A DNA stretch of 64,000 bases from Betaproteobacteria bacterium (GTDB taxonomy: Bacteria > Pseudomonadota > Gammaproteobacteria > Burkholderiales > Ga0077523), in NCBI GenBank assembly GCA_025350245.1, contig JANXYG010000125.1:90-64089 (forward strand), in the 5' to 3' direction. A program made the position numbers and the translations under genes. The notes under the pieces are model-generated. The model was not told the origin of the DNA, did not search any database, and was given only the letters and a program-made list of their open reading frames with translations. Below, piece by piece: positions 3,021 to 62,093 of the stretch (its first letter is position 1; the number at the start of each line of letters is the position of its first letter).

Positions 3021-4127
3021 ATGTCGACAGGGGCTCCGCGGTTTTATGCAGGCCTGATGTCGGGTACCAGTGTCGATGGCGTGGACGCGGCCCTCTGCGA
3101 ATGGCCGGACCACGGCAGGCTCAGCCTGATCGGCACGCACTACCAGCCGTTTTCGGATGGCCTTCGCGAACGCCTGCTGACATTGTGCGCGCCCAGCCAC
3201 AATGAACTTGAGGTCGCCGGTGCCTGCGGGCGCGAAATAGCGAGCGAGTATGCGAATGCGACGGCGGCGCTGCTCACCGCAGCCCGGGTAGGGCCGGACG
3301 CGGTTCGGGCGATCGGGTGCCACGGGCAGACCGTCCGGCATCGTCCGGAAGCCGGCTTCTCGATTCAGGTTGTCAATCCGGCTCTGCTGGCCGAACTCGC
3401 GGGCATCGACGTCATCGCCGATTTCAGGAATCGCGACCTGGCCGCAGGCGGCCAGGGAGCGCCGCTCGTGCCGGCTTTTCACGCGGCAGCCTTCGGTCGC
3501 ACCGGGAAGCATCGTGTGGTGGTCAACATCGGCGGCTTCGCCAACATCACCGACCTGCCGTCTGCTGGCGTCGTCCGCGGCTTCGACACCGGGCCGGGAA
3601 ACGCGCTGCTCGACCTGTGGATACATCGTCACCGGGGCGCGCGGTACGACGACAAGGGCGCGTTGGCCGCCTCGGGCACCCTGTTGCCGCGACTACTCGA
3701 GCGGTTGCTTGCCGATCCCTATTTCTCTCTCGCTCCGCCGAAAAGCACGGGACGGGAGTATTTCAACGGCGGCTGGCTAGATCGGCATCTCCTGGGAGAG
3801 GAAGCCCCAGCCGACGTACAAACCACGCTGGCAGCGTTGACGACGGAGACCATCGCCCGCTCGATAGACACATACTGCCCGGGGGCGCAGGAGATCCTGG
3901 TCTGTGGCGGCGGCGTCCGCAACGACGACTTGATGCAACGCCTGTGTGCACGGCTCGCGCCTGTTGGCGTCGATAGCACCGCCGCGTGCGGAATCGATCC
4001 CGATTGGGTCGAAGCCGTTGCCTTCGCGTGGCTGGCGCGCCAGTGGGTCCTGCGGTTACCTGGAAATGTCGCCGAGGTCACCGGCGCCAAAGGACCGCGG
4101 GTACTGGGCGCTTGCTACCCGGCTTAG
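3021..4127 (+). CDS. anmK: anhydro-N-acetylmuramic acid kinase
   Basis: It has the N-terminal YAGLMSGTSVDGVD signature and is about 368 aa. ATG 3021 is preferred over GTG 2979. Confidence 0.85.
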   Translation: MSTGAPRFYAGLMSGTSVDGVDAALCEWPDHGRLSLIGTHYQPFSDGLRERLLTLCAPSHNELEVAGACGREIASEYANATAALLTAARVGPDAVRAIGCHGQTVRHRPEAGFSIQVVNPALLAELAGIDVIADFRNRDLAAGGQGAPLVPAFHAAAFGRTGKHRVVVNIGGFANITDLPSAGVVRGFDTGPGNALLDLWIHRHRGARYDDKGALAASGTLLPRLLERLLADPYFSLAPPKSTGREYFNGGWLDRHLLGEEAPADVQTTLAALTTETIARSIDTYCPGAQEILVCGGGVRNDDLMQRLCARLAPVGVDSTAACGIDPDWVEAVAFAWLARQWVLRLPGNVAEVTGAKGPRVLGACYPA

Positions 4128-5716: not shown

Positions 5717-6741
5717 GGCGAGAGTGGCACCTGATCCAGCCCGGTGGCTTCCGGCAGACCGAACATGATATTCATGTTCTGGACGGCCTGTCCGGCCGCC
5801 CCCTTGACCAGATTGTCGATGACCGACAGGACCACGACGACATCCCCGCCACCCGGTCGGTGCACGGCGAGGCGGCAGATGTTCGCGCCCCGGACCGAAC
5901 GTGTTTCCGGGTGACTGCCCGGCGGCATCACATCGACGAACGGTTCAGCGGCATAGCGCGCCTCGAACAACGCCTGCAAGTCGGTGCTGCGTGTCAGCCG
6001 GGCGTAGAGCGTGGCGTGGATTCCGCGAATCATGGGTACCAGATGCGGGGTGAACGTGAGCCCCACCGGGCCACCGGCAGCAACCCCGAGACCCTGGCGA
6101 ATCTCCGGCAGATGGCGATGGCCTGATACACCGTAAGCCTTGAAGCTGTCGGCCGCTTCGGCCAGCAGGACGCTCAGCTCCGCCTTGCGCCCGGCACCGC
6201 TGACGCCGGATTTCGCGTCCGCGATGAGAGAGCCGAGTTCCACGTGGCCACCTTCCAGCAGTGGCAAGAAACCGAGCTGTACGGCGGTCGGGTAACAACC
6301 GGGATTGGCGACGATCCGGGCAGCGCGAATGCGTTCACGGTTGACTTCCGGCAATCCGTACACGGCGGTATCCAGCAGATCGGGGCACGCATGCGGCATG
6401 CCGTACCAGCGCTCCCACTCCGAGTGATCACGCAAGCGAAAATCGGCGGCCAGATCGATGATACGCACCCCGCGCTCCAGGAGCTCACGCGCCTGGGTCA
6501 TCGCGATGCCATTGGGTGTGGCGAAGAACACCAGATCGCAACCGCTCAGTCCGGCGTCGGCCGGATCGCAGAACCGCAGACCGATGCGCCCGCGAAGACT
6601 GGGAAACAGTTCTGCGACAGCCGTCCCGGCTTCGCCTCGCGACGTGATGGCTGCCAGCTCCACGCCCGGATGGCGGCAGAGAATCCGTAGCAATTCGACC
6701 CCGGTGTAGCCCGTTCCGCCGACAATTCCGACCGATATCAT
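5713..6741 (-). CDS. argC: N-acetyl-gamma-glutamyl-phosphate reductase
   Basis: It has the [17 protein letters not shown]-binding N-terminus and the catalytic Cys region ANPGCYPT. The start is trimmed to ATG 6741 (MISVGIVGG). Confidence 0.9.
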
Positions 6742-7671: not shown

Positions 7672-7850
7672 GATGGTACGGTTGTAAAACCGCAAGTGAG
7701 TTCGAGAAAGCCGTAAATGGTAGGTGAAACCAGAAGCCGATGTCAAACCCAATGATCTTCGCTGCCTGAAGTTCTTTACCGGCCAGGGCTTCAGAGGCTA
7801 CCCTAGCTGTCCTTCAGCAGGCACGCAACGCCTGCGTGTTTCCGATTCCA

Positions 7851-11377: not shown

Positions 11378-11764
11378 TCAGCGGGAATAAAGCAGTTCCG
11401 GATCAATCACGACCGGATCGGTCACATGCCATTCACCGTCTTCGAGACACCGGAAGAAGCAGCTTTCCCGCCCGGTATGGCAGGCAATGCCACCGCCCTG
11501 CTCGATCGAGAGCAGAACCACGTCGCCATCGCAATCGAGCCGGATCTCGCGCACCCGCTGCACGTTGCCCGATTCTTCGCCCTTGTGCCAAAGACGGCCG
11601 CGCGACCGCGACCAGTAATGTGCCTCGCCGGTTGCCACGGTACGCTCGAGGGCTTCGACGTTCATGAAGGCGAACATCAGCACCCGGCCGGAACCGGCAT
11701 CTTGCGCAATCGTCGCAACCAGCCCGTCGGCAGACCAGCGGATCGCATCGATCCAGCCACTCAC
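11378..11764 (-). CDS. hisI: phosphoribosyl-AMP cyclohydrolase
   Basis: The 128-aa product has [19 protein letters not shown] and DCDGD motifs. Confidence 0.9.
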
Positions 11765-12531
11765 AGCCGGACCTCGACGCGATGCTCGGCGAGATAGCGC
11801 TTGGCCTCTCCCACCGTGTGTTCTCCATAGTGGAAGATGCTCGCGGCGAGGACTGCGTCGGCCAGACCGAGGCGGACGCCGTCCACGAGGTGCTGCAGGT
11901 TACCGACGCCGCCGCTCGCGATCACGGGAATCTCGAGCGCGCTCGAATAGGCCCGCGTCAACTCCAGATCGAAACCTTCGCGGGTTCCGTCACGATCCAT
12001 GCTGGTCAGCAGGATTTCGCCCGCGCCCGCGGCCTGCATCCGCACGCCCCATTCGATCGCATCGAGTCCGGTCGCCTTGCGGCCGCCGTGCGTATGGACC
12101 TCCCATGCGGGAGGTGATGCGCCGGGAACGCGCTTGGCATCCACCGCCACCACGATGCACTGGGAACCGAAGTGCGCGGCGGCCTCCTCGACCAACGCGG
12201 GATTCTGGACGGCGGCGGTATTGATACTGACCTTGTCGGCGCCGGCATTGAGCAATCGCCGGATATCGGCCACCGACCGCACACCGCCACCCACCGTGAG
12301 CGGTATGAAGACCTGCGACGCAACCGCTTCGACGACCTGGATCATGGTCTCACGTCCATCCGAACTGGCCGTGATGTCGAGAAAGGTCAGCTCATCGGCA
12401 CCCTGGTCGTCGTAGCGACGCGCGATCTCGACCGGGTCGCCGGCATCGCGCAACCCGCCGAAGTTGATCCCCTTCACCACCCGCCCGTTGGTGACATCGA
12501 GGCAGGGAATGATGCGTGTGGCGAGGCCCAT
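11761..12531 (-). CDS. hisF: imidazole glycerol phosphate synthase cyclase subunit
   Basis: The 256-aa product has RIIPCLDV and [12 protein letters not shown] motifs. Confidence 0.95.
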
Positions 12532-12570
12532 GAAAGATGCCGGTGCCGCTGGCTCAGCGCCCGCCGGGCC

Positions 12571-12858
12571 GAACGAAGGTGTACTCGGAAGCGAAGGGGC
12601 CGCATCCGCAGGGTTCCCCGAGGATGCTGCGCCCCCTCAAGGGGGAAGGCGAAGCGCAGCGCAGCCTGGGGGTGGACGTCACCTCGGGCAACATCGGCCG
12701 GGTTCCCCGAGGCATGCAGCGCCCCCTCGAGGGGGAAGGCACAGCGCAGCGATGCTGAACGAAGGGAACCGCTGAAGCGAAGGGGCAGCGCCCACAGGAT
12801 CCCCCGCGGACGCTACGCCCCCTTGGGGGGAAGGCGCAGCACAGCGCAGCCTGGGGGG
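12571..12858. repeat. three tandem copies (one 5' and 3' truncated) of a ~100-nt G5/C5-rich intergenic repeat, inside the his operon
   Basis: Units lie at 12571-12672, 12700-12752 (partial) and 12757-12858. The core is GGTTCCCCGAGG..GCGCCCCCTNNAGGGGGAAGGCGNAGCGCAGCGCAGCCTGGGGG. The same unit recurs at 41857, 51714 (reverse) and 61011. Confidence 0.85.
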
Positions 12859-12872
12859 AGAGCAGTTTCATT

Positions 12873-13619
12873 TCAACCGGCGGGGCGGAGCTGGTCGGCG
12901 AGTTGCTGGGCGGCACGGAGGTCGAGAGTGCCCTCGTACAGGGCACGACCGGAGATGGCGCCGGTAACGCCTTCGGGTTCGATTTCGCACAGACGCCGCA
13001 CATCGTCCAGATTGGTGACACCACCGCTGGCGATCACCGGCACCGACAGCACTTTCGCGAGTGCGAGAGTAGCGTCGATATTGACCCCGGAGAGCATGCC
13101 ATCGCGCCCGATGTCGGTATGGATGATCGCCTCGACCCCGTAGTCCTGGAACTTGAGCGCAAGATCGAGGACATCGTGGCCGGTCATCTTGGACCACCCG
13201 TCGACGGCAACCTTGCCGTCACGCGCGTCGAGGCCGACCATGATGTGACCGGGAAAGGCATAGCAGGCATCGTGCAGGAATCCGGGGGTGGTGACCGCCG
13301 CGGTACCGATGATCACGTAGGAGATGCCGTCGTCCAGGTAGCGTTCGATGGTGCCGAGATCGCGGATGCCGCCACCGAGCTGCACCGGAATCCGCTCGCC
13401 CAGGGCACGGATGATGGCCTTGACTGCCGGTTCATTGCGGGGTCTTCCGGCAAACGCCCCGTTCAGGTCGACCAGATGCAGACGTCGCGCGCCCTGTTCC
13501 AGCCAGTGCGCAGCCATCGCGCCGGGGTCTTCCGAAAACACGGTCGCCTGATCCATGGCGCCTTGCTTGAGACGGACGCAGTGGCCGTCTTTGAGGTCGA
13601 TCGCGGGAATGATGAGCAT
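12873..13619 (-). CDS. hisA: ProFAR isomerase
   Basis: The 248-aa product begins [17 protein letters not shown]. Confidence 0.95.
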
Positions 13620-13686
13620 GTTGGCAGCGACGGCCCGGCATACGCTGTGGCGCCACCGGGCGGAAGATAGGCAGAATCCAGAATCG

Positions 13687-14379
13687 TTACTTGCTGGGCA
13701 TTGCGTTCAAGCCGGTGACAACCGCCTCGTCCGGTGCGGCGAACTGAGCGTTCCAGTTCACGAAATTAGCCAGCAGCCCAAGTCCGGCTGCGTGACTCTT
13801 CTCCGGGTGAAACTGTACCGCGAACAGACCGGCCTTGGCCACTGCGCTGGTGAAGTCGAACGGATAGGCCGTGCTCCCGGCGGTGATGGTGGCATCGGCA
13901 GGTTCCACGTAATAGCTGTGCACGAAGTAGAAACGCGACTCCGACGGGATGCCGCGCCAGAGCGGATGTGCCAGGACCTGCCGCACGCGGTTCCAGCCCA
14001 TGTGAGGCACCTTCAGCTTGCGCCCGTCGGCATCGCGCAGACCCGTGGCCGGAAACCGGCGCACCCGCCCGGCGAGGATGCCCAGGCCCGGGGTATCGCC
14101 TTCCTCGCTGCGCTCGAACAGCATCTGCAGGCCGATACAGATGCCCAGGAACGGCTTGGCGCACGCAGCCTCGATCACTGCGCCGCGCAAGCCACGCGCA
14201 TCGAGTTCACGCATGCAGTCGGGCATCGCGCCCTGACCTGGAAACACGACGCGATCGGCCGCGGCCACGCGCGCCGGATCGCTGGTGACCTCGACCTGGG
14301 CACCCGGCGCCACGTGCTCGATCGCCTTGGCGACCGATCGCAGATTGCCCATCCCGTAATCGACTACCGCAATGTGCAT
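13687..14379 (-). CDS. hisH: imidazole glycerol phosphate synthase glutaminase subunit
   Basis: It has the class I amidotransferase motif [14 protein letters not shown] and the catalytic Cys region GICIGLQ. ATG 14379 is preferred over TTG 14385. Confidence 0.9.
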
Positions 14380-14392
14380 CGGCAAGGTCCGG

Positions 14393-15007
14393 TCAGAGCA
14401 CGCCTTTGGTGGACGGCGTCACACCCTGCGCACGCGGGTCAAACTCGACAGCCATGCGCAAGGCTCGCCCGAACGCCTTGAACGCCGTCTCGGCCTGGTG
14501 GTGGGCGTTCTGCCCCTTCAGGCAATCGATGTGCAGCGTTACCAGGGCGTGATTCACGAAGCCCTGAAAGAATTCGTGCACCAGTTCGGTCTCCAGCCCG
14601 CCGATCATGGCGCGGGTGAAGGCGATGTCGAGCTCGAGGCCAGGACGCCCCGACAGGTCGATGACGACGCGCGCCAGCGCCTCGTCGAGCGGCACGTAGG
14701 CATGCCCGTAGCGCCGGATACCCTTGCGGTCGCCGATGGCGCGCAGAAATGCCTGGCCGAGCGTGATGCCGACATCTTCCACCGTGTGATGACCGTCGAT
14801 GTGCAGGTCGCCGGACGCCTCGATCTCGAGGTCGAACAAGCCGTGGCGGGCAATCTGGTCGAGCATGTGATCGAAGAATCCGATCCCGGTTGCCAACCTG
14901 GAGACGCCGGTCCCGTCGAGATCCAGGCGAACGCGGATCTGTGTCTCCAGGGTCGTACGGCTCGCCTCGCCGATCCGGTTCGTGCCTGGCACCACGTTGT
15001 CGTTCAT
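14393..15007 (-). CDS. hisB: imidazoleglycerol-phosphate dehydratase
   Basis: It has the metal-binding motifs [15 protein letters not shown] and [12 protein letters not shown]. Confidence 0.9.
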
Positions 15008-15025
15008 CGTATCGAGAAGTTCAGG

Positions 15026-16147
15026 CTAGGAGGCGACGATGGTTTCGAGTGCGCCGAGAAACTGCTGGTTCTCCGCCGGCGTACCCACAGTCACCCGCAG
15101 GCAGTCGGCAAGCAGCGGATGGCCAGCGGAGAGGTCCTTGATGAGTATCCGCCGGGCCTTCAGCGCGTCGTACACCCGCGTTGCCCCGGGGATGCGGAAC
15201 AGCAGGAAGTTGGCAGCACTCGGAAACACCGTCACCCCGGGAACCGCAGACAAGGCACCTGCCAGCGCGTCGCGCGCCTGCAGGATGGCTCGGGCCTGGC
15301 CCTTGAGCACGTCGGCATGGGCCAGCACCACTTCCGCCGCGAGCTGGGTAAGCACGTTGATGTTGTAGGGCATCCGCACCTTGTCGAGCTGGTCGAGCCA
15401 CTGCGCCCGGCCCATCAGGAAACCGAGCCGGAGCCCGGCCAGACCCAGTTTCGACAGCGTGCGCATCACGACGAGATTCGGCAGGCGTTCCAGGTCACCG
15501 ATGAAGCTCTCGCCCGCGAAGACGTGATAGGCCTCATCCAGCACGACGAGCCCCGGAGCGGCAGCGACGATGCGCTCGATCACCGACCGGTCGAACAGGT
15601 TGCCGGTCGGGTTGTTCGGGTAGGCGATGAACATCAACGCCGGCTGATGTTCACGGATCGCCGCCATCAGGGCGGCCTCGTCGAGAGAAAAATCCGGTTC
15701 GAGCGGGACGCCGACGAATGTGGCGCCAGCGAACATGGCAAGCAACCGGAACATCACGAACGATGGCTCGACCCCGACAATGACGCTGCCGGGCCGCGCG
15801 ACCGCCAGCGCCAGCAACTGGATGATCTCGTCGGAACCATTGCCGAGGAGCAGGCCGATGCCGGCGGGCACCTGCATGGTCGCGCGCAGTTGCCGCTTCA
15901 GGCCCGGGGCCGTCGGATCCGGGTAGCGGTTGACCGGGGCCATCGCGACGGCCCTGGCGATCTCATCGCGCACCACCTGAGGCAGCGAATAGGGATTCTC
16001 CATCGCATCCAGCTTCACCATGCCGGTGGCGTCGGCCACGGCGTAAGCCGACAGCGCCAGCACTTCAGGCCGCAGCACGGTCTCGGGCGCCGGCGCGCGG
16101 ATTGGAGTGAGATCGTGCACTTGGGCGGGCTTCATGGCCAACGGCAT
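15026..16147 (-). CDS. hisC: histidinol-phosphate aminotransferase
   Basis: This is a 373-aa class II aminotransferase with the PLP-Lys region MRTLSKLGLAGLRLGF. Confidence 0.9.
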   Translation of the reverse strand: MPLAMKPAQVHDLTPIRAPAPETVLRPEVLALSAYAVADATGMVKLDAMENPYSLPQVVRDEIARAVAMAPVNRYPDPTAPGLKRQLRATMQVPAGIGLLLGNGSDEIIQLLALAVARPGSVIVGVEPSFVMFRLLAMFAGATFVGVPLEPDFSLDEAALMAAIREHQPALMFIAYPNNPTGNLFDRSVIERIVAAAPGLVVLDEAYHVFAGESFIGDLERLPNLVVMRTLSKLGLAGLRLGFLMGRAQWLDQLDKVRMPYNINVLTQLAAEVVLAHADVLKGQARAILQARDALAGALSAVPGVTVFPSAANFLLFRIPGATRVYDALKARRILIKDLSAGHPLLADCLRVTVGTPAENQQFLGALETIVAS

Positions 16148-17446
16148 TCAGGCGTGGATGCGATAGCGCGCGGCAGCGGCATGGGCGGGAAGGCCTTCAC
16201 CGTCGGCGAGTTCGCCGGCGATGCGGCCGAGCGTGGCGGCGCCCGCCCTGGACGTCTGGATCAGGCTCGACCGCTTCTGGAAATCGTACACCCCGAGCGG
16301 TGACGAGAAACGCGCGGTGCGCGCGGTGGGCAGTACGTGATTCGGACCGGCGCAATAATCGCCCAGGGCCTCGGAAGCGTAGCGCCCCATGAAAATGGCG
16401 CCGGCATGGCGCAGCTGGCCCAACAATGCCTGCGGGTCGGCGACCGACAGCTCGAGATGCTCGGGGGCGATGCGATTGGCGATGGCGCAGGCCTCGGCGA
16501 GATCGCGCACCAGCACCAGCGCGCCACGATCCTCGATCGAGCGCTCGATCACCGCGCGTCGCGGCATGTCATGCAGGAGCCGCTGCATGCTGGCGACGAC
16601 GGCATCGATAAATGCGGCGTCCGGGCACAACAGGATCGCCTGCGCCATCTCGTCGTGTTCGGCTTGCGAGAACAGGTCCATCGCGACCCAGTCGGGCGGC
16701 GTCTGGCCGTCGCACAGCACCAGGATCTCGGACGGACCGGCGACCATGTCGATGCCGACGACGCCGAATACCCTGCGCTTGGCGGCGGCGACGTACGCAT
16801 TGCCCGGGCCGACGATCTTGTCCACCGCCGGGATCGTGGCCGTGCCGTAGGCGAGCGCACCGACTGCCTGGGCGCCGCCAACCGCGAATATACGGTCCAC
16901 CCCGGCCACCGCCGCCGCCGCGAGGACCAGCGGATTGCGCTCGCCACCCGGGGTGGGCACGACCATGACGATCTCGCCGACGCCGGCAACCTTTGCCGGC
17001 AGGGTGTTCATCAGCACGGTGGAGGGATACGCCGCCTTGCCCCCGGGAACGTAGACGCCGACCCGGTCGAGCGCGGTGACCTGCTGGCCGAGCGTCGTGC
17101 CGTCGGCCTCGGTGTACTGCCACGATGTGATCGACTGATGCTCGTGATACCGGCGGATGCGCTGGGCAGCCTGCTCCAGCGCGTCGCGACGAGTTGGCGA
17201 CAACGCGGACAAGGCCCGGTGACAAGCGTCGAGGGTGATCTCGAGATCCGCCACGGTGCCGACATCGACATGGTCGAAGCGGCGCGAGTAGTCGAGCACG
17301 GCGGGATCACCGCGTTGGCGCACGTCGTCGAGAATCTCGCGGACCGTGGCATCGATCGAGGCGTCCTGCGTATTCTCGAAGGCGAGCAGGCTGCCGAGCC
17401 TGCGCTCGAAGTCGGGCTGCCGCGAATCGAGGCGGGTGACCTTCAT
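16148..17446 (-). CDS. hisD: histidinol dehydrogenase
   Basis: The product is 432 aa from ATG 17446 (MKVTRLDS), with FSQAEHDE and GPNHVLPT motifs. An ATGA overlaps the hisG stop. The 557-aa ORF in the track is an artefactual extension. Confidence 0.9.
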
Positions 17447-18102
17447 CGACGTGCATGCCCCTGCTCTGCCGCGACCGCGAATGCATCGATGACCGGCTGC
17501 AGCGCGCGGCGCTTGAGCTTGAGCGCCGCCTGATTCACCACCAGCCGCGCCGAGATGGGTGCAATCTCCTCGACCGCGACCAGCTGGTTGGCACGCAGGG
17601 TGTTGCCGCTGGAAACCACGTCGACGATCGCGTCCGCCAGGCCCACCAATGGCGCCAGCTCCATCGATCCGTAAAGCTTGATCAGGTCGATATGCACGCC
17701 CTTGGCCGCGAAATGCTCGCGCGCCGTCTTGAGGTACTTGGTTGCGACGCGAAGGCGCGCGCCCTGCCGGACCGCCAGCGCGTAGTCGAAGTCCGCGCGC
17801 ACCGCGACCATCATGCGGCATCTGGCGATCTGCAGGTCGAGCGGCTGGTACAGCCCGGCGCCGCCATGCTCGAGCAGGATATCCTTGCCGGCGATGCCCA
17901 GGTCGGCCGCGCCATACTGGACGTAGGTCGGCACATCCGAAGCTCGCACGATCACGATGCGGACGTCAGCCCGGTTGGTGGCGAGGATGAGCTTGCGCGA
18001 GGTCTCCGGGTCGTCGGTGGCGACGATACCCGCGGCCGCGAGCAGCGGTACCGTTTCCTCGAAGATTCGCCCCTTGGAGAGCGCGATGGTGATGCCGCTC
18101 AT
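17443..18102 (-). CDS. hisG: ATP phosphoribosyltransferase, short form
   Basis: The product is 219 aa from ATG 18102 ([16 protein letters not shown]). The length implies the HisZ-dependent short form, and no hisZ is in the window. Confidence 0.85.
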
Positions 18103-18106
18103 GAGG

Positions 18107-19640
<1,534 letters not shown>

Positions 19641-19689
19641 GTATTCCTGGGGTGGCGGTACCGGGCGACCGCCAGCAAGCTGGCGCCGG

Positions 19690-20445
19690 TCAGTGGCGGA
19701 GCTTGTAACCGCTCCGGATCATTTGCAGAGCCACCAATGATAAGGCAGCGAAGCAGGCGACCACAACGCCGAGACTCACGACCGGCGCTACATCCGACTC
19801 GCCGAAGAAGCCGAAGCGGAACCCGTCGATCATGTAGAAGAACGGGTTCAGGTGCGATACCGCCTGCCAGAACGGCGGCAACGAATGGATCGAATAGAAC
19901 ACCCCCGACAGGAACGTCAGGGGCACGATGACAAAATTCTGGAAACCGGCGAGCTGGTCGAATTTCTCCGCCCAGATACCGGCGATCAACCCCATGGAGC
20001 CCAGGATGGCGCCGCCGAACAGCGCGAATGCGAGCGCCCACAAAGGATGCAGCACCGGCAGGGCAACGGTCACGAAATTGATGCAGTACACCCCGAACCC
20101 GACCGCCAGACCTCGCACCACGGCCGCCACCACGTACGCCCAGTAGAACTCCCCGTGCGACAAGGGCGGCAGCAGGATGAAGATGATGTTGCCGGTGATC
20201 TTCGACTGGATGAGGCTCGACGACGAGTTGGCGAAGGCGTTCTGCAACAGGGACATCATCGCCAGGCCGGGAATCAGGAACGCCGTGTAAGGCACACCCG
20301 GATAGACCTGCACCCGGTCCTCCAGCACGTGCGAGAACACCAGCAGGTAGAGCAGCGCCGTCAGGATCGGCGCCCCGATGGTCTGGAACGCCACTTTCCA
20401 GAAACGCAGCAGTTCCTTGTACAGCAGCGTGCGGAAGCCGGTCAT
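19690..20445 (-). CDS. ABC-2 type transporter permease
   Basis: This 251-aa six-TM protein is translationally coupled to the upstream ATPase. Confidence 0.8.
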   Translation of the reverse strand: MTGFRTLLYKELLRFWKVAFQTIGAPILTALLYLLVFSHVLEDRVQVYPGVPYTAFLIPGLAMMSLLQNAFANSSSSLIQSKITGNIIFILLPPLSHGEFYWAYVVAAVVRGLAVGFGVYCINFVTVALPVLHPLWALAFALFGGAILGSMGLIAGIWAEKFDQLAGFQNFVIVPLTFLSGVFYSIHSLPPFWQAVSHLNPFFYMIDGFRFGFFGESDVAPVVSLGVVVACFAALSLVALQMIRSGYKLRH

Positions 20446-40116: not shown

Positions 40117-41844
40117 TCACGCGGCATCGGAAATCGCGGGCGCAAGGGTCCCGGGGCGCAAGGTGAAACAGACCTCACCGGCAAGGTTCGATGACAGTTC
40201 CAGCACGTAGCCCAGTTCGGCGGCGTGACGCGCGCTCTGGTACAACCCGACCCCCAAACCATCGTCCGATGCTACCGGCGCCCGGAACAGCTCGCGCGCC
40301 AGAGACGCCGAAATGGCCTCGCCGCCATCGGTGATCGAAAATCCGACACCTTCGCCATCGTGAAGCCAGGCCGCACGCACCGACGCGGTCTCGCCGCGAC
40401 GACGTTTCGCCAACGCATTCTGGAGCAGGTTGTCGGCGACGCTGTCGAACAGGTCGCCAGGGACCAGGGCCACCGCCTGAACCTCGCCGATGCCATCGAA
40501 CTCGACACCCTCGTGGGCGTATTGCTGGGCGAGCGCCCGCCACCAGTCGGCCGCGTTCACCATGCCGACCGGCCCGGAACGGTGGGCATCGAGCTTGTCG
40601 AGCGTACTCTGGAGCCGCTGGACGATCTGCGGCAATTGCCGCCGGATGAGTCGCAGCAATGCATCGGCGTCATCGCTACTGCTGTTCGCCGCCGCGGCAC
40701 AAAGCGAGCGCAACGATTGCAACAGGTTCTTGACGTCGTGCGTGAGGCGCGATCCGGTTTCGTAGATCGCCTGCAGATAGTCGGTCTGGCGCTGCGCCTG
40801 TTCGCGTACCTTCGCGTCGTGGTAGTCGCCGAGCAGGCGCGCCAGCAGACGCATGTGCAGCAGCAGCGCCGGTGTCGGCCGCCAGCGCGTGTAGAGGCGC
40901 AGATCCAGCCCGCCGAACGCGAAATGCGTGTCGAACGGCGAGACGATCCCGACCAGCCCCTCGCGGTTCGCAGCCGACCATTCGACCCCCACGAGCCATG
41001 GCAGCTCGAGCATGTCGCGCACTGCCCGCGCCACGAACTGGTACGGGTCGGCCTCGCGCTCGGCGAGGTTGGCCAGCCGGTGCATCCAGCGCTCGAACGG
41101 CATGCCAAGGCTGAGAAAGTAGCGCGACAACACCTGTCCGATGCCGGCAAAACCGCCACGCGGGTCCCAGAGCCACGACAGGATGAGCATGATGGCAGCG
41201 ATCGCCGTCACGGTCTTCACCAGCGCGACGGGATAGTCGTTGTGCGTCACCTGCTGCACGAACACCGTGCCCAGCACCAGCACCACCGCCAGCAGGAACA
41301 GCAGCACGCTGTAGACCAGATCGATGGCGTAGCGGGGCTGCGCGTGCCGCTCGCTCGTGCCCAGAAACGGGATCACGATCAGCGGCAACAGCAGACCATG
41401 CCGCAGAACCACCAGCGCCGCACTGGCAACCGACGCCTTGCCGAACAGCCCGGGGACGACCCAGGCGAGCAGTGCGGCGAGGAGATAAAGCGCAGCGAGC
41501 AACGATGCCATGCGCTCTCGCCGCGGGCCCAGCGCCGGCACGTTGCCCCCGATCAGCGAGAACAGCACCGCGAGCCAGAGGCCGAGCAGCCACCAACTGC
41601 TCCACCACACCAGCACGGCGCTCCCGGCAACCACCAGCAACGCTCGACGGGGCACCAGTTGCTGCGCGCCCTGCCACACCGGTTGCCAGAGCAGGAACAG
41701 GCCGAAGTGCGCAAGCAGCAAGGCCCGGGACGCGCCACTGCCGAGATCCAGCAGCAGCGCAAGATGCAGGGCGAGCAGCATGAGCCCGAGCGTGACGTTC
41801 TGCCGCGCCCACAGCGAGCGCGGGCGGATCGCGGGCGGGGTCAT
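40117..41844 (-). CDS. multi-TM sensor histidine kinase (PilS-like topology)
   Basis: It has roughly 9-10 N-terminal TM helices, an H-box SRLTHDVKNLLQSL, an N-box DNLLQNALAK and G-boxes ITDGGEAI / GLGVGLY. The start is trimmed to ATG 41844 because the ORF extension is repeat DNA. Confidence 0.85.
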   Translation of the reverse strand: MTPPAIRPRSLWARQNVTLGLMLLALHLALLLDLGSGASRALLLAHFGLFLLWQPVWQGAQQLVPRRALLVVAGSAVLVWWSSWWLLGLWLAVLFSLIGGNVPALGPRRERMASLLAALYLLAALLAWVVPGLFGKASVASAALVVLRHGLLLPLIVIPFLGTSERHAQPRYAIDLVYSVLLFLLAVVLVLGTVFVQQVTHNDYPVALVKTVTAIAAIMLILSWLWDPRGGFAGIGQVLSRYFLSLGMPFERWMHRLANLAEREADPYQFVARAVRDMLELPWLVGVEWSAANREGLVGIVSPFDTHFAFGGLDLRLYTRWRPTPALLLHMRLLARLLGDYHDAKVREQAQRQTDYLQAIYETGSRLTHDVKNLLQSLRSLCAAAANSSSDDADALLRLIRRQLPQIVQRLQSTLDKLDAHRSGPVGMVNAADWWRALAQQYAHEGVEFDGIGEVQAVALVPGDLFDSVADNLLQNALAKRRRGETASVRAAWLHDGEGVGFSITDGGEAISASLARELFRAPVASDDGLGVGLYQSARHAAELGYVLELSSNLAGEVCFTLRPGTLAPAISDAA

Positions 41845-41856
41845 GTCAGTGCCCGC

Positions 41857-41930
41857 CGGGGCCGTCCCAAGGACACCGCCCCCCTGGAGGAAGGCGAAGC
41901 GCAGCGCAGCCTGGGGGCGGGCGTCACCTC
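41857..41930. repeat. 3' two-thirds of the ~100-nt repeat unit
   Basis: GGGGCCGTCCCAAGGACACCGCCCCCCTGGAGGAAGGCGAAGCGCAGCGCAGCCTGGGGGCGGGCGTCACC aligns to the units at 12571 and 61067. Confidence 0.8.
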
Positions 41931-42017
41931 CATACACCGGTAGGAGCGACCGCGCGCGTTGTGTAGCATCACGGCCTCGTCATCCCGGCCCGCGCCTTGC
42001 CCTCTCCGGCATTCTCG

Positions 42018-46491: not shown

Positions 46492-47503
46492 ATGCACGCG
46501 GAACCGGAGATCGCTCGCGCAAACAGCCTTGGCAAGCTCACCCCCAGCGCCGCGATTTCGGTCGGGCGGCGGGTGCTCGACATCGAATCGCGCGCCGTCG
46601 CGATGCTGTCGCAACGGCTCGACCACAGCTTCGCCCGTGCGCTCGAGCTGCTGCTGGCATGCCGTGGCCGCGTGGTGGTGAGCGGCATCGGCAAGTCCGG
46701 CCATATCGCGGGCAAGATCGCCTCCACCCTCGCCAGCACCGGGACCCCGGCGTTCTTCATGCATCCCGCCGAGGCCAGTCACGGCGACCTCGGCATGATC
46801 ACTGCCGACGACGTGATGATCGCCCTCTCCAACTCCGGCGAAAGCAGCGAACTGCTCACCATCGTGCCGCTGGTGCGGCGGCGCGGCGGTGATCGCCATG
46901 ACCGGCAATGCCGGGTCGACCCTCGCGCGCGCGGCCGATGTTCACCTCGATGCCGGCGTGAGCGAGGAAGCCTGTCCGCTGGGTCTCGCCCCCACCGCCA
47001 GTACCACGGCGGCACTGGCGCTCGGCGATGCGCTCGCGGTCGCCGCGCTGGAGGCGCGCGGCTTCGGTGCTGAGGATTTTGCGCGCTCTCACCCCGGTGG
47101 AAACCTGGGCCGCAAACTGCTGACCCACGTCAGCGACGTCATGCGCGTGGGTGCCGCGATCCCGCAGGTGCGGGTCGATACCCCGGTCAGCGATGCCCTG
47201 GTCGAAATCTCCTGCAAAGGGCTGGGCATGAGTGCCGTATCGAGCGCGAGCGGCGTGCTGGCCGGCGTGCTTACCGACGGCGATCTGCGCCGCGCCATCG
47301 GCCGCAACGTCGACTTGCGCACGGCCGTGGTCGCCGACATCATGTCCTGCAATCCACGCACCATCGGTCCGGGCCGGCTTGCGGTCGAGGCGGTCGCGGA
47401 AATGGAACGTCATCGCATCAACGGGCTGCTGGTGGTCGATGCCGCGGGCGCTGTGGTCGGCGCGCTCAACATGCACGACCTGTTCGGCGCCAAGGTGATC
47501 TGA
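46492..47503 (+). pseudogene. kdsD: arabinose-5-phosphate isomerase KdsD, interrupted by a +1 frame change near 46876-46890
   Basis: The SIS domain (VVSGIGKSGHIAGKIASTLASTGTPAFFMHPAEASHGDLG) is in one frame. The continuation (VIAMTGN...ACPLGLAPTASTTA..., two CBS domains) is in the next frame. The junction lies in the run GCGGCGGCGCGGCGG. Confidence 0.8.
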
Positions 47504-47561
47504 TGACGCCCCCCCCCAATGGGTGGCCAGCGCCCTTGGGAACGGCTTGGCGGGCGGTGCG

Positions 47562-48113
47562 ATGACCGATCAAGGTCACGAAGCGCGCATCGAGTCGGCA
47601 CTGGCCAAGGCGCGGCGGGTGCGCATCGCGGTCTTCGACATCGACGGCGTGATGACCGATGGCACGCTGTTTCTCGATGATCAGGGCAACGAGAGCAAGG
47701 GCTTCAACTCGCTCGACGGCCACGGCCTGCGCATGCTCGCCCACACCGGCATCACGCTCGCCATCATCACCGGCCGCCGGTCGCGCTGTGTCGAATTGCG
47801 GGCCATGAATCTCGGCATCGCGCACGTGCACCAGGGCGTGGACGACAAGCTCGCGAGCTTCGACGAACTGCTGGGCCCGCTTGGTCTCGAGCGCGCCGAC
47901 GCCGCCTACATGGGCGACGACGTGGTCGATCTGCCGGTGATGCGCCGCTGCGGGCTTGCCGTGTCGGTGCCAGCCGCGCCGGAAATCGTGCGCCGGCATG
48001 CCGACATCGTCACCACGCGCAGCGCCGGACACGGCGCCGTGCGTGAGGCCTGCGAGTTCATCATGGCGGCGCAGGGCTCCCTCGACACCGAGCTCGAGCG
48101 CTACCTCCGATGA
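47562..48113 (+). CDS. kdsC: KDO 8-phosphate phosphatase
   Basis: It has the HAD motifs FDIDGVMTDG and GDDVVDLPVM. The start is ATG 47562. Confidence 0.9.
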   Translation: MTDQGHEARIESALAKARRVRIAVFDIDGVMTDGTLFLDDQGNESKGFNSLDGHGLRMLAHTGITLAIITGRRSRCVELRAMNLGIAHVHQGVDDKLASFDELLGPLGLERADAAYMGDDVVDLPVMRRCGLAVSVPAAPEIVRRHADIVTTRSAGHGAVREACEFIMAAQGSLDTELERYLR

Positions 48114-51713: not shown

Positions 51714-51741
51714 GGTGACGTCCCCCCCAAGGCTGCGCTGC
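51714..51741. repeat. 28-nt terminal fragment of the ~100-nt repeat (inverted orientation)
   Basis: The reverse complement GCAGCGCAGCCTTGGGGGGGACGTCACC matches GCAGCGCAGCCTGGGGGTGGACGTCACC at 12659-12686. Confidence 0.7.
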
Positions 51742-51749
51742 AATCCTTC

Positions 51750-52235
51750 ATGAGTCTTCTTTCCCGCCTCTTGCCGCTCGCGCATGTGCTCGTCGACCTC
51801 GACGTCACCAGCAAGAAACGCGTGTTCGAGCATGCGGGCCAGCTATTCGAGAACACGCTGGGTCTGTCGCGCAGCCAGGTCTACGACAGCCTGTTCGCGC
51901 GTGAACGGCTCGGCTCCACCGGGCTGGGCCACGGCATCGCGGTGCCGCATGGCCGCATCAAGGGGCTCAAGGAGGCTGCCGGGGCTTTCGTGCGCACGCG
52001 CGCCCCGATCCCGTTCGAAGCACCGGATGGAAACCCGGTCGGCCTCATCTTCGTGCTGCTGGTCCCCGAGAAAGCAACCGACGCGCACCTCCAGATCCTG
52101 TCGGAACTGGCCGAGATGTTCAGCGACCGTGACCTGCGCGGACGGCTGCAACTGGCGGATGACGCCGCCGCGGTCCAGCAACTCATCGTGCGCTGGGAAC
52201 CCCATGCCCCAGATCAGCGTCGCGCGGCTGTTTGA
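51750..52235 (+). CDS. ptsN: PTS EIIA-Ntr nitrogen regulatory protein
   Basis: The 161-aa product has the active-site His region GLGHGIAVPHGRIKG. Confidence 0.9.
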   Translation: MSLLSRLLPLAHVLVDLDVTSKKRVFEHAGQLFENTLGLSRSQVYDSLFARERLGSTGLGHGIAVPHGRIKGLKEAAGAFVRTRAPIPFEAPDGNPVGLIFVLLVPEKATDAHLQILSELAEMFSDRDLRGRLQLADDAAAVQQLIVRWEPHAPDQRRAAV

Positions 52236-56489: not shown

Positions 56490-56563
56490 TGGAGCGGGTG
56501 AAGGGAATCGAACCCTCGTATGCAGCTTGGGAAGCTGCCGTTCTGCCATTGAACTACACCCGC
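56490..56563 (-). tRNA. tRNA-Gly (anticodon CCC)
   Basis: The reverse complement GCGGGTGTAGTTCAATGGCAGAACGGCAGCTTCCCAAGCTGCATACGAGGGTTCGATTCCCTTCACCCGCTCCA folds as a cloverleaf. It has a 7-bp acceptor stem, anticodon loop TTCCCAA, a TTCGATT T-loop and an encoded CCA. Confidence 0.93.
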
Positions 56564-60024: not shown

Positions 60025-61000
60025 CGGGATAGAGCCAGCACGACACCTCGCTGCCATCGGCCGGTGTCGGTTGCGGACGCTCGCGCAGGCAGCGATCGAG
60101 ACGACGTTCGCAGCGCGGATGAAACGCGCACCCGCCCGGGATGGCATCGAGCCGCGGCATCGCGCCGTCGATCTGCGTCAGCCGTGTCGCCAGCGAGCCT
60201 CGCTTCGGGATCGCGCCCATGAGCCCGGTGGTGTAGGGATGGCGAGGCCGCTGAATCACATCGCGTACCAGACCGATCTCGGCCACCCGCCCGGCGTACA
60301 ACACGGCAACGCGGTCGGCCATGGCGGCGATCACGCCCATGTCGTGGGTGATCAGCATGACGCCCATGCCGCGATCGCGCACCAGGCGCGCCAGCAGCTC
60401 GATGATCTGCGCCTGCGTCGACACATCCAGCGCGGTCGTGGGTTCGTCGGCGATCAGCAGTGCCGGCTCAGCGCACAGGGCCAAGGCAATCACGACCCGC
60501 TGCCGCATGCCGCCCGACAACTGGTGTGGGTACTGGTCGAACCGCTGCGCCGGCGCCGGGATGCCGACCTCGCGCAGCAACGCGACCGCGCGCTCGCGCG
60601 CCTCGTTGGCCGTGACCTGGAGGTGCGTGCGTATCGTCTCCGTGATCTGGGCACCGACCGTGAACAGCGGGTCGAGCGCGGTCAGCGGATCCTGGAAGAT
60701 CGCCCCGATGCGCCGGCCCCGGATCGCACGCAGTTGCGCCGCCGCCAGGTTGTCGATGCGTCCGCCCTGGAGATGAATCTCACCAGCGGCGATGCGCCCC
60801 GGCGGTTGCAGCAGCCCGAGCACCGCCATGCCGGTCAGCGACTTGCCGGCACCGGATTCGCCGACCACGCCGAGCACCTCGCCCGGTGCGATCCGCAGCG
60901 ACACATCGTCGATTGCAACCAGCACGCCGCGCCGCGTCGGAAACTCGACGCGCAGATGGCGGACGTCGAGCAGCGGTCCGGTCGCGGGCGATCCCGTCAT
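60011..61000 (-). CDS. peptide/nickel-type ABC ATP-binding protein (DppD-like)
   Basis: It has Walker A GESGAGKS, signature LSGGMRQR and a C-terminal CAFHPRC. The start is trimmed to ATG 61000 because the ORF extension is repeat DNA. Confidence 0.85.
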   Translation of the reverse strand: MTGSPATGPLLDVRHLRVEFPTRRGVLVAIDDVSLRIAPGEVLGVVGESGAGKSLTGMAVLGLLQPPGRIAAGEIHLQGGRIDNLAAAQLRAIRGRRIGAIFQDPLTALDPLFTVGAQITETIRTHLQVTANEARERAVALLREVGIPAPAQRFDQYPHQLSGGMRQRVVIALALCAEPALLIADEPTTALDVSTQAQIIELLARLVRDRGMGVMLITHDMGVIAAMADRVAVLYAGRVAEIGLVRDVIQRPRHPYTTGLMGAIPKRGSLATRLTQIDGAMPRLDAIPGGCAFHPRCERRLDRCLRERPQPTPADGSEVSCWLYPDDAS

Positions 61001-61010
61001 TGCAGTGCGC

Positions 61011-61172
61011 GCCGGGCCGCCAGCCCCCTTCGGCGAAGGCGGAGCCCAGCGTAGCCTGGGGGTGCGGAACGAAAGGACCTTCGAAGCGGAGGGGCCCCGT
61101 CCACAGGGTTCCCCGAGGAACGGGGCGCCCCCTCCTGAGGGGGAAGGCGGAGCGCAGCGCAGCCTGGGGGTG
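61011..61172. repeat. one and a half tandem copies of the ~100-nt repeat, inside the peptide ABC operon
   Basis: A partial unit lies at 61011-61065 and a full unit at 61067-61172. The full unit is about 85 percent identical by eye to 12571-12672. Confidence 0.85.
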
Positions 61173-61178
61173 GGCATC

Positions 61179-62093
61179 TCATCGCAGTCGGGGATTCAGC
61201 GCGTCGCGCAGCCAGTCGCCGAGCAGGTTCACCGACAGCGCCAGCAGGACCAGGGCGGCGCCGGGAAACAGGCTCATCCACCAGTCGCCGGAAAACAGGA
61301 AATCGTTGCCGATGCGGATCAGCGTGCCGAGTGACGGCGTCGTGACCGGCATGCCGACCCCGAGGAACGACAGGGTCGCCTCGGTGATGATGGCGGTGGC
61401 GAGATGGATGGTGCCGATCACCAGCACCGGGCCGGTGACGTTGGGCAACAGGTGCCGGAACATGATGCCGCCCGCCCCGCGCCCGATCAGTTGCGCCGCC
61501 TGCACGTATTCCTTGCGACGCTCGACCAGGGTCGAGCCGCGCACGGTGCGAGCGTACTGGACCCATCCCGAAAGACCGATCGACAGCACCAGCACCCAGA
61601 GCGCGAGTGTGGAATGCATCTCGCCGGACAATGCGACCCGCGCGATGCCATCGACCAGCAGCGCGATGAGGATCGCCGGAAACGACAATTGCACGTCGGC
61701 GACGCGCATCACGATCGCGTCCACGGCACCGCCCACATAGCCCGACACCAGCCCCACCGTGACGCCGATCACCATCGACAACAGCACCGAGGCGATGCCG
61801 ACCAGCAACGAGATGCGGGCGCCGTAGAGAATGCCCGACAGCACGTCGCGCCCCTGATCGTCGGTGCCGAGCGGATAGCTCGCCTTGCCCTCGGCCAACC
61901 ACGCCGGCGGCGATAGCGCATCGAGCAGGTCGAGCGACGCGAGATCGAAGGGATCGTGGGGCGCGAGCCAGGGCGCGAATGCCGCGGCGCCGATGCACAC
62001 GAACGCCACGATGGCAGCGACGATGGCGACCGGCGATTGGCGCAGGCTCCAGCCGAGATCCGAGTTCCAGAGGCGCGCGGCGACTTGCAGCAC
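61179..62093 (-). CDS. peptide/nickel-type ABC permease (DppC-like)
   Basis: The 304-aa product has the N-terminal LAPHDPFDL motif and the LGTDDQGRDVLSGILYGARISL region typical of DppC/OppC. It starts with GTG. Confidence 0.85.
   Translation of the reverse strand: MLQVAARLWNSDLGWSLRQSPVAIVAAIVAFVCIGAAAFAPWLAPHDPFDLASLDLLDALSPPAWLAEGKASYPLGTDDQGRDVLSGILYGARISLLVGIASVLLSMVIGVTVGLVSGYVGGAVDAIVMRVADVQLSFPAILIALLVDGIARVALSGEMHSTLALWVLVLSIGLSGWVQYARTVRGSTLVERRKEYVQAAQLIGRGAGGIMFRHLLPNVTGPVLVIGTIHLATAIITEATLSFLGVGMPVTTPSLGTLIRIGNDFLFSGDWWMSLFPGAALVLLALSVNLLGDWLRDALNPRLR

Follow-up and report, generated by a model that had tools for sequence, protein, structure and literature searches.

A lineage-specific, modular intergenic repeat in a betaproteobacterial histidine operon and its possible persistence as a translatable mini-cistron

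The hisA-hisF spacer and further copies in the window

The window analysed here, a 64,000-nt stretch of DNA from Betaproteobacteria bacterium (contig JANXYG010000125.1 of assembly GCA_025350245.1), carries the histidine biosynthesis genes in the gene order bolA-murA-hisGDCBHAFIE-tatABC. The hisA and hisF genes are separated by a repeat array, and this array, the repeat family to which it belongs and the small open reading frame (mini-ORF) that it provides between the two genes are the subject of the present work. The first-pass annotation, made from the sequence of the window, had described the spacer as three tandem units (one of them partial) splitting hisA from hisF in an otherwise tightly packed operon. 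Both parts of this description held. The remaining junctions from murA to hisE were overlaps or gaps of at most 67 nt in a gene map based on third-codon-position GC content (GC3), and the 341-nt spacer was made up of 2.5 repeat units and a terminal half-module (Table 1). The unit limits proposed earlier were recovered by our repeat search, except that the repeat region reaches down to position 12554, where the half-module ends with TGA. No promoter-like or terminator-like sites were predicted within the spacer. The window sequence was matched by contig JAYSKP010000040 of GCA_043726285.1.

The mini-ORF that starts directly behind hisA stays open through all units of the spacer and closes at the TGA of the terminal half-module, which is followed by 22 unique nucleotides and the hisF ATG. 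None of the motifs GGAG, GAGG and AGGA was present within 17 nt upstream of this ATG. The 105 codons had no Pfam match and encoded no conserved peptide. The orthologous region of the related metagenome-assembled genome (MAG) 'Betaproteobacteria bacterium OTE_88_metabat_364' (hereafter OTE_88; locus L071, corresponding to window positions 12065-19966 at 91-94% nucleotide identity) also contained an ATG one nucleotide past the hisA stop, from which 66 codons led to an identical terminal TGA. The start and the stop were thus retained across indels of 90, 27, 6, 1 and 1 nt that distinguish the two arrays, the 90 nt missing from OTE_88 being located at the position of Unit II. The terminal half-module motif also abuts start codons at many other loci of the family.

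Table 1. Positions of the histidine genes, repeat modules and bridging reading frames in the window (CM, covariance model; CDS, coding sequence)
Feature	Position	Strand	Evidence and remarks
hisA CDS	12873..13619	-	Stop TGA 12875-12873; ORF list, Pfam His_biosynth E = 1.7e-79, gene order in L001
hisF CDS	11761..12531	-	ATG 12531-12529
hisA-hisF spacer	12532..12872	-	341 nt; head-to-tail repeat array, sense with operon transcription
Unit I, adjoining hisA	12756..12871	-	CM match 12777-12869, 85.4 bits, E = 6.7e-15
Unit I modules, mRNA order	12871-12756	-	T' ATGAAACTGCTCT 12871-12859; C 12858-12816; H hairpin 12815-12787; L 12786-12756
Unit II, partial (C without distal half, plus H hairpin)	12686..12755	-	CM match 12686-12774, 38.7 bits, E = 6e-6
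Unit III	12571..12685	-	CM match 12591-12684, 107.1 bits, E = 4.7e-19
Unit III modules	12685-12571	-	T GAGGTGACGTCCA 12685-12673; C 12672-12630; H hairpin 12629-12601; L 12600-12571
Terminal 'S-end' half-module GGCCCGGCGGGCGCTGA	12554..12570	-	TGA 12556-12554 closes the bridging ORF
Bridging mini-ORF, 105 codons	12554..12871	-	ATG 12871-12869, 1 nt past the hisA stop (TGAaATG)
Single T-C-S element upstream of histidine-kinase gene (40117-41844)	41838..41933	-	CM match 41838-41929, 59.3 bits, E = 6.6e-10
Degenerate element between kdsD and kdsC	47501..47565	+	Without AGGC..GCCT hairpin; not reached by CM at E <= 1
Truncated element (T and half C) between rpoN and ptsN	51714..51753	+	Repeat search fragment
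One full and one partial unit between oppC-like permease and oppD-like ATPase genes	60997..61182	-	CM matches 61086-61182, 96.7 bits, E = 4.6e-17, and 60994-61074, 24.6 bits, E = 0.003

A covariance model built from 90 units gave six matches in the window at E <= 0.003, every one on the minus strand and with a GC content of 0.70-0.75. The pattern C5-N4-G5-NN-GGC occurred five times, versus 0.33 expected. The repeat search recovered 12568-12686, 12686-12776, 12754-12872, 41874-41931, 61019-61076 and 61063-61184, as well as the fragment 51714-51741. It returned all the further copies listed in the first-pass annotation, which had overlooked the degenerate copy at 47501-47565. The fragment at 51714 had been called inverted; this applies to the plus strand only, since, judged against its own genes, its sense is that of all other copies. 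Two loci had been regarded as intra-operonic, while we found four between co-directional genes. The statement that all copies are intergenic was borne out, none being situated in a gene body; three calls 'inside' genes turned out to be start-codon miscalls.

A bridging mini-ORF was present at all six loci examined; six window loci were counted, and those tabulated were the five window loci and the OTE_88 hisA-hisF orthologue. At the histidine-kinase gene, the mini-ORF begins with ATG 41933 or GTG 41927 (28 codons from the GTG) and ends at TGA 41843-41841, overlapping the ATG of the kinase (ATGA). The kdsD stop (TGA 47501-03) overlaps the ATG of a 20-codon mini-ORF at 47503-05 (TGATG), and the TGA of the latter (47563-65) overlaps the kdsC ATG at 47562-64 (ATGA). 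The rpoN stop TAG (51711-13) is followed by a single g and by GTG 51715, which opens a mini-ORF of 12 codons whose TGA (51751-53) overlaps the ptsN ATG at 51750-52 (ATGA). At the opp locus, ATG 61182-80 overlaps the oppC-like stop TGA 61181-79 (ATGA), and the resulting 61 codons end with TGA 60999-97 overlapping the oppD-like ATG at 61000-60998 (ATGA).

Several side observations were made at the hisA-hisF junction and in the window. A 73-aa ORF without a Pfam match is publicly called at L001 9774-9995, equivalent to window 12537-12758 on the plus strand; this antisense ORF is a spurious gene created by the repeat array. The earlier view that plus-strand ORFs reading as a repeated peptide (13 residues given) are artefacts was upheld. 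Two short-read Logan contigs carrying the same hisF (L002 and L003) end about 105 nt upstream of hisF, within the array, and a further short-read contig (L074) ends at about 40 nt; the ends of L002 and L003 are consistent with an assembly broken by the repeat array. The hisA-hisF gap ranged from -2 to 311 nt in repeat-free betaproteobacterial relatives (L075-L153), many having 100-300 nt, and the junction in those relatives is often expanded by something other than the repeat. A tRNA gene (56493-56563, minus strand) was the sole Rfam match in the window at the gathering threshold.

Size, orientation and junction geometry of the family

The first-pass annotation had proposed a dispersed, intergenic, hairpin-forming family residing inside operons and had suggested that its copy number be determined beyond the window. 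The core pattern GAAGGCNNAGCNCAGCGNAGCCTGGGGG was scanned over one genome per species and was found in at least 70 stretches; the family is thus not restricted to the window. Among the 70 stretches listed, 66 belonged to OTE_88, three to MAG GFS_541 and one to a contig binned as Acetobacteraceae. With up to five mismatches allowed, the collected loci comprised at least 143 cores. These formed 103 clusters, of which 69 were single, 28 double and 6 triple, and 437 kb of OTE_88 accounted for at least 134 of the cores, in 96 clusters. All 34 multi-unit clusters were arranged head to tail on one strand. No repeat core was detected in 80 metagenome contigs (0.7 Mb) whose HisF was at most 85% identical, and on this ground the family is considered restricted to this lineage. 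The same HisF metagenome search did not return an empty hisA-hisF site from a close relative, the nearest HisF being 85% identical. The Acetobacteraceae-binned copy is a canonical one on a 3.4-kb contig (L055, JAYVCG010000665.1) of an alphaproteobacterial MAG, for which mis-binning is more likely than horizontal spread.

The orientation of the elements was locked to that of the neighbouring genes. In 85 of the 96 clusters, the gene on the 5' side of the element (in the mRNA sense) was co-oriented with it (p = 2.5e-15). Between co-directional genes, 54 clusters were sense and only 5 antisense (p = 1.9e-11), with a further 18 clusters located between convergent and 6 between divergent genes. The upstream stop codon lay at most 18 nt from the core in 69 of 85 clusters. 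Between this stop and the 5' DTG (ATG, GTG or TTG) of the element, the spacing amounted to -4 in 20 clusters, where the element's own TGA serves as the stop, and to +1 in 25 clusters (TGA-n-DTG); 55 of 73 clusters fell within -4 to +3. The pattern also held for native TAA and TAG stops (8 each, 16 of 73), located 0-3 nt from the DTG.

The 3' ends of the elements showed a corresponding arrangement. In 18 of the elements collected, a long coding ORF begins right at the terminal ..CTGA (spacing -1 to +8). The terminal TGA was in frame with the 5' DTG in 14 of them, with a fully open frame in 13 (binomial p = 1.4e-4 versus 1/3), and the in-frame elements measured 81, 84, 150, 156, 162, 165, 174, 186 and 507 nt. 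Three of the four out-of-frame exceptions are coupled otherwise, by an ATGA overlap or by in-frame fusion to hisC. Among co-directional or divergent clusters, the first stop in the DTG frame was positioned -4 to +8 from a gene start in 30 of 54, and the +2 control frame gave 16 of 50 (Fisher p = 0.019). The motifs GGAG, GAGG and AGGA were missing upstream of 31 of the 33 coupled starts.

Modules, RNA helices and turnover

The mRNA sense of the repeat corresponds to the reverse complement of the unit as first described, and in this orientation the units were resolved into modules. The T module reads (GAGG)DTGA-CGCCCA or, as a variant, ATGAAAC(T/G)CCCA. It is followed by the C module, CCCCC-AGGC-U-GCG-CUG-CGC-UUC-GCCU-U-CCCCC-loop-GGGGG, and by the H module, a hairpin of about 13 bp with a variable stem, a conserved apex (UCGGGGGACCCUGU) and the end ..GCGCUGA. 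The S module is a variant of H (CCAGUGCGC-UUGGGAGCGGCCCGGC-GCGCACUGA), and the optional L module is C/U-rich (CCCCUUCGCUUC-n6-CCCUUCGUUCAGCA). Arrays consist of either T-C-H repeated with a period of 78-90 nt or C-H-L repeated with a period of about 105 nt. Counted from the DTG, the canonical T-C-H unit comprises 27 codons, ending at the TGA of the H end, and the T'-C-S unit comprises 28 codons, e.g., MKLPPPGCAALRLPPPGGQCAWERPGAH.

The covariation analysis that had been recommended earlier supported the helices on the mRNA-sense strand. Ninety distinct units were aligned in the mRNA sense and evaluated against a four-helix structure defined by hand, after alignment-based folding and mutual information had proved unusable: RNAalifold run on the MAFFT alignment gave unstable consensus structures, and raw mutual information was dominated by subfamily linkage, e.g., between columns 64 and 102. 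Paired cells accounted for 95.3% versus 90.6% in shuffles, and changes on both sides of a pair were observed in 97 cells versus 29 (0 of 500 shuffles reached either value). The covariation score was 0.143, in comparison to 0.066 for shuffles and at most 0.045 for slid partners. Five pairs of the H helix displayed compensatory changes (e.g., AU 51 / CG 22 / GC 4; GC 51 / AU 24), and in the AGGC/GCCU helix a G-C pair (79) was swapped to C-G (10). The H arms occurred in 55 distinct combinations, and 88 of 92 H hairpins kept at least five Watson-Crick pairs. The putative C5/G5 helix, whose tracts had earlier been suggested to pair in alternative ways, was invariant among the aligned units. G.U pairs were found at two positions on the mRNA-sense strand (UG 44 / UA 32; GU 86), largely inherited rather than independent events, whereas the opposite orientation gave 41 C.A or A.C mismatches versus a single T.G. 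This asymmetry points to the mRNA-sense strand as the one that is folded. The hairpins probably act at the RNA level. Canonical G-quadruplex motifs were dismissed by eye, their loops being too long. An Rfam search returned nothing relevant to the spacer at gathering or E-value thresholds, the best sub-threshold match scoring 21 bits versus a gathering score of 86.

Comparison of the window with OTE_88 revealed that arrays grow and shrink by whole units, as exemplified by the 90-nt unit indel that separates the two his arrays. OTE_88 has elements at the hisD-hisC and murA-hisG junctions, and the window has none at either. The empty murA-hisG site reads GGGCACTGAC followed directly by CTCATGAGCGGC; at the filled site, an element running from ATGACGCCCA to GGCACTGAC is flanked by GGTCACTGAC and AACGTGAGCGGC. 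At hisD-hisC, GAAATG flanks a 66-nt OTE_88 element on either side, and the element lies in frame in the 5' end of hisC (L071 3900-4000, versus the tight TGAATG junction at window 16100-16150); either 22 residues are inserted at the N-terminus or the hisC start is shifted. Both filled/empty comparisons place the insertion at a stop/start junction. No clean target-site duplication was apparent at these two sites. Direct repeats of 6-8 nt (GAAATG; CACTGAC) flank the insertions but coincide with the element's own end motifs, and for this reason no duplication could be called; the 'n' of TGA-n-ATG also differs between the two ends of one element. A TGA delimits the units at either side, and the elements end with CTGA(N). 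A putative insertion preference 3' of TGA(N) would explain the head-to-tail arrays.

In the window, murA ends with 10 nt, stop codon included (18100-18110, GGGCACTGAC), that match the consensus of the repeat 3' end (CGGGCACTGAC; compared with L071 5990-6150). The match is either the trace left by an element since lost or a target that is preferred. Insertion sequences of the IS110 family (IS1111/IS621 type) target REPs, and a fragment of the C-terminus of an IS110-family transposase (LLAAGKPKKVALTACSHKLLRILNAMARAGQPW...) was present in the CCCCC/GGGGG loop of two OTE_88 copies (L024 ~7700-7830 and L069 ~3040-3190). The fragment was 61-79% identical to annotated plasmid IS110-family transposases by tblastn, and a Pfam search of its 42 residues gave no match; the finding suggests an insertion sequence that targets the repeat. 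At least 14 copies harbour, at the apex of the H or S hairpin loop, another palindromic repeat with a length of about 72-75 nt (..TGAGGCCGGACACAGACAGTCCCTGCGGACTGTCTGTGCCTGCCGAACGACAGCGGCCTCCGGCCGCTGGC..; L010, L012, L013, L028, L029, L031, L034, L042, L043, L056, L065, L071 at ~6020-6100, L073 and others). It is absent from the window. When located inside a mini-ORF, it adds 72 nt and the frame is kept.

Explanations, related repeats and significance

The orientation lock, the abutment on stop and start codons, the bridging mini-ORFs and the resemblance to the BRE and MIRU families discussed below go beyond what the first-pass annotation had noticed. Copies accumulate exactly at cistron boundaries and in the transcribed orientation only. 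We propose, with a probability of roughly 0.55, that the spacer array represents a lineage-specific, non-autonomous, modular intergenic repeat that persists in operons as a translatable mini-cistron and thereby preserves translational coupling. Each element or array would act as an additional mini-cistron. Its 5' ATG, GTG or TTG would overlap or trail the upstream stop at a classical coupling distance, the body of the element would be free of stops in the frame used, and the 3' TGA, either alone or overlapping the next ATG, would hand the terminating ribosome to a downstream start that usually lacks a Shine-Dalgarno sequence of its own. Ribosomes translating the array would open its hairpins and keep hisF coupled to hisA, so that a 341-nt insertion in a tight operon would be non-polar. 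The same logic has been proposed for the mycobacterial MIRUs. It is slightly more probable than not that the mini-ORFs are translated and relay ribosomes to hisF and the other downstream genes.

A number of points weigh against this proposal. All evidence for the translation model comes from MAG sequence, and no mobilising enzyme was found in 540 kb. GC-rich sequence is poor in stops, and chance alone couples a control frame about one time in three, a high rate that shows how easily such sequence mimics coupling. The Shine-Dalgarno background, 22% of starts with a motif, is a crude estimate obtained with an ad hoc gene caller. Tandem periods are multiples of three in only about 12 of 32 cases, the units are read in different frames, and which frame of an array is open depends on the frame of entry. 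The mini-ORF of the his spacer stops 22 nt short of the hisF ATG, not at it. The copies are related, so the counts are not independent events, and masters that were propagated may make up the classes of 84 and 156 nt. As for the base that precedes the element TGA (G 38, A 34, T 11, C 4), the split between A and G may mark two subfamilies, and T 11 versus C 4 is weak alone. Neither single units nor the complete spacer, folded on either strand, were more stable than shuffled sequences (z from -1.2 to +0.7).

The RNA structure invites a classical REP/BIME role, in which untranslated hairpins block 3'-5' exonucleases or stall ribosomes near stops and thereby set mRNA stability or expression within the operon. 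The compensatory helix changes and the G.U pairs on the mRNA-sense strand agree with it, as does the location at most 18 nt from stops between unidirectional (54) and convergent (18) genes, which is reported for REPs (PMC3733652). The IS110-family remnants in the C-module loop likewise recall insertion sequences that target REPs. Such a role leaves the coupling distance of the DTG, the in-frame terminal TGA and the abutment on starts without a Shine-Dalgarno sequence unexplained, and the unexceptional folding energies speak against it as well; we consider it rather improbable, although it is compatible with the mini-cistron proposal and both could hold. A selfish or neutral repeat, similar to a MITE (miniature inverted-repeat transposable element), is less likely still. 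Under this explanation, the repeat would play no part in expression; its orientation, its closeness to stops and its open frames would merely follow from target preference (e.g., insertion 3' of TGA), from purifying selection and from a GC-rich sequence containing few stops. The TGA-bounded units and the CTGA(N) end alone could yield head-to-tail arrays and the association with stops, direct repeats of 6-8 nt accompany the stop/start insertion in both filled/empty comparisons, coupling arises by chance in about 33% of cases and unit turnover is rapid. A simple TGA target is nevertheless insufficient for the native TAA and TAG stops (16 of 73) found 0-3 nt from the DTG; in-frame TGAs in 14 of 18 elements of differing architectures are not accounted for, and downstream genes without a Shine-Dalgarno sequence must still be translated.

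Small-RNA genes or terminators have been suggested for one Bordetella copy of BRE (bprJ1/bprJ2 transcripts), the closest described sequence family, and GCCCCCCGAGGGGGC directly precedes T6 in the reverse complement of the Bordetella BRE, an arrangement that we read as resembling an intrinsic terminator. The copies studied here are devoid of A/T runs, the spacer has no promoter-like or terminator-like site, no Rfam family comes near threshold and more than 50 clusters are sense-oriented inside operons, making this explanation very improbable. A real repeated peptide or protein, read from the plus-strand 13-residue frame or from the 105-aa minus-strand ORF, can be practically dismissed. Long ORFs do cross the array on both strands, and one pipeline called a 73-aa gene; against this, there is no Pfam match and the plus strand is antisense to all flanking genes. 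The idea of a conserved peptide was rejected because the periods are mostly not multiples of three and the frames differ between units.

Among the described repeats, the little-studied Beta-proteobacterial repeat element (BRE) is the nearest in sequence. BREs measure 75-91 bp with a GC content of about 69%, are intergenic, although some extend a few bases into the end of an ORF, and form head-to-tail arrays spaced by 0 to a few nt; their number varies between related genomes (8-29 copies), and they are known from Bordetella, Polaromonas, Delftia, Acidovorax, Rhodoferax and Azoarcus (Hot et al. 2011, BMC Genomics 12:207, PMC3110155). The family studied here shares the betaproteobacterial host, the GC-rich unit, the intergenic head-to-tail arrays and the variable copy number. 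Blocks of the BRE from List S1 (CGGGCCG..CCCAAG, GCCCCC-loop-GGGGG and GCGCAGC(G/C)TGGGGG) are collinear with the S-type unit, and the similarity is weak. Local alignment to the Bordetella BRE gave z = 5.6 for one unit (0 of 2000 shuffles) and 3.5-4.3 for three others, and nhmmer with a Bordetella-only BRE profile gave E = 0.75-0.97 on the present copies; the authors of BRE required more than 70% identity and a score above 50 for membership (PMC3110155). The Bordetella BRE differs in having A6 and T6-9 runs, which are missing here, whereas our family has additional T, H (with a variable stem) and L modules and at least 134 copies versus 8-29. Gene orientation, helix covariation and mini-ORFs are not described for BRE (PMC3110155). 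Judging from these alignments, the family is a probable distant relative of BRE, with membership not proven.

Mycobacterial interspersed repetitive units, or MIRUs, occur as direct tandem units of 40-100 bp, intercistronic and co-transcribed, with GC-rich inverted repeats (Supply et al. 1997, via PMC12548453 and PMC3184786). They insert at start codons, their internal ORF being coupled to the gene at -4 spacing (2025 review, PMC12548453), and MIRU ORFs overlap adjacent genes in a polycistron (Delihas 2011, PMC3184786), which is thought to make the insertion neutral for expression. Our family also consists of direct tandem intercistronic units oriented with the flanking genes, with internal ORFs that abut neighbouring stop and start codons. 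It differs in belonging to another phylum and in being more abundant, modular and also present at convergent gene ends (18 clusters). The resemblance, drawn here by analogy, lies in the mode of working and not in membership.

The earlier comparison with REP/BIME elements stood with regard to the niche just 3' of stops between unidirectional or convergent genes, and failed with regard to unit size, head-to-tail order and tag. REPs are single palindromes of 20-40 bp, mostly in inverted dimers and rarely head to tail, with a GTAG or CGTC tag, the GTAG REPs being linked to REP-associated tyrosine transposases (RAYTs; PMC3733652). They are situated at most 20 nt from ORF 3' ends at unidirectional or convergent genes, the element sometimes supplying the stop codon (Di Nocera et al. 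2013, PMC3733652). High copy number, GC-rich hairpins and a stop-proximal niche are common to both, while the present units have three helices spread across about 80 nt and a length of 80-105 nt, all are head to tail and no inverted dimers occur. The position equivalent to GTAG was variable (A/G/C/T), without a conserved tag; the T module does contain CGTC, but stems of 8-9 bp with A-T first pairs, as the rules of the CGTC family demand, are lacking. The linked RAYT that the first-pass annotation had proposed to look for did not materialise: no ORF with HUH and YxxNP motifs and no phmmer match was found in 540 kb (about 10% of a genome), a weak negative as the sequences of the three Y1 probes were unverified. 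Classical REP/REPIN membership was ruled out by unit size, head-to-tail order and the missing tag.

Pneumococcal BOX elements (boxA-boxB(n)-boxC) are modular, with an internal module of variable number. This build is similar to that of the present family, with the difference that BOX is not locked to cistron junctions. The Rickettsia palindromic elements (RPEs), mentioned in PMC3733652, are comparable to the 66-nt OTE_88 copy lying in frame in the 5' end of hisC, but are mostly intragenic. Neither BOX nor RPE has a sequence relationship to the family, which is an abundant, modular new variant of the BRE/MIRU kind of intergenic repeat.

Intergenic repeats are common and their roles mostly obscure. 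The family described here addresses how a 341-nt structured insert can sit in a tight biosynthetic operon, and the answer, although drawn from sequence, is statistically testable through the orientation lock, the coupling-distance junctions and the in-frame starts and stops. On the practical side, the arrays break short-read assemblies and seed spurious ORFs and false N-terminal extensions in MAG annotation. A bolder and more doubtful idea is that the repeat is a mobile 'ribosome-relay cassette', i.e., a REP-like hairpin that evolved to be translated, with a 5' start, a stop-free body and a 3' TGA. Stop/start junctions of essential operons would then be colonised without polarity, and downstream genes that lost their own Shine-Dalgarno sequence would now depend on the element. 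The S-type relay peptide given above contains two PPPG motifs and, if it is translated, expression of the genes behind it could become dependent on elongation factor P (EF-P). The proposal extends the MIRU idea to Betaproteobacteria and offers a hypothesis for BRE, the function of which has been open since 2011. Provided that the distant similarity to BRE is genuine, the BRE arrays in Bordetella, Polaromonas and other Betaproteobacteria may follow this logic as well.

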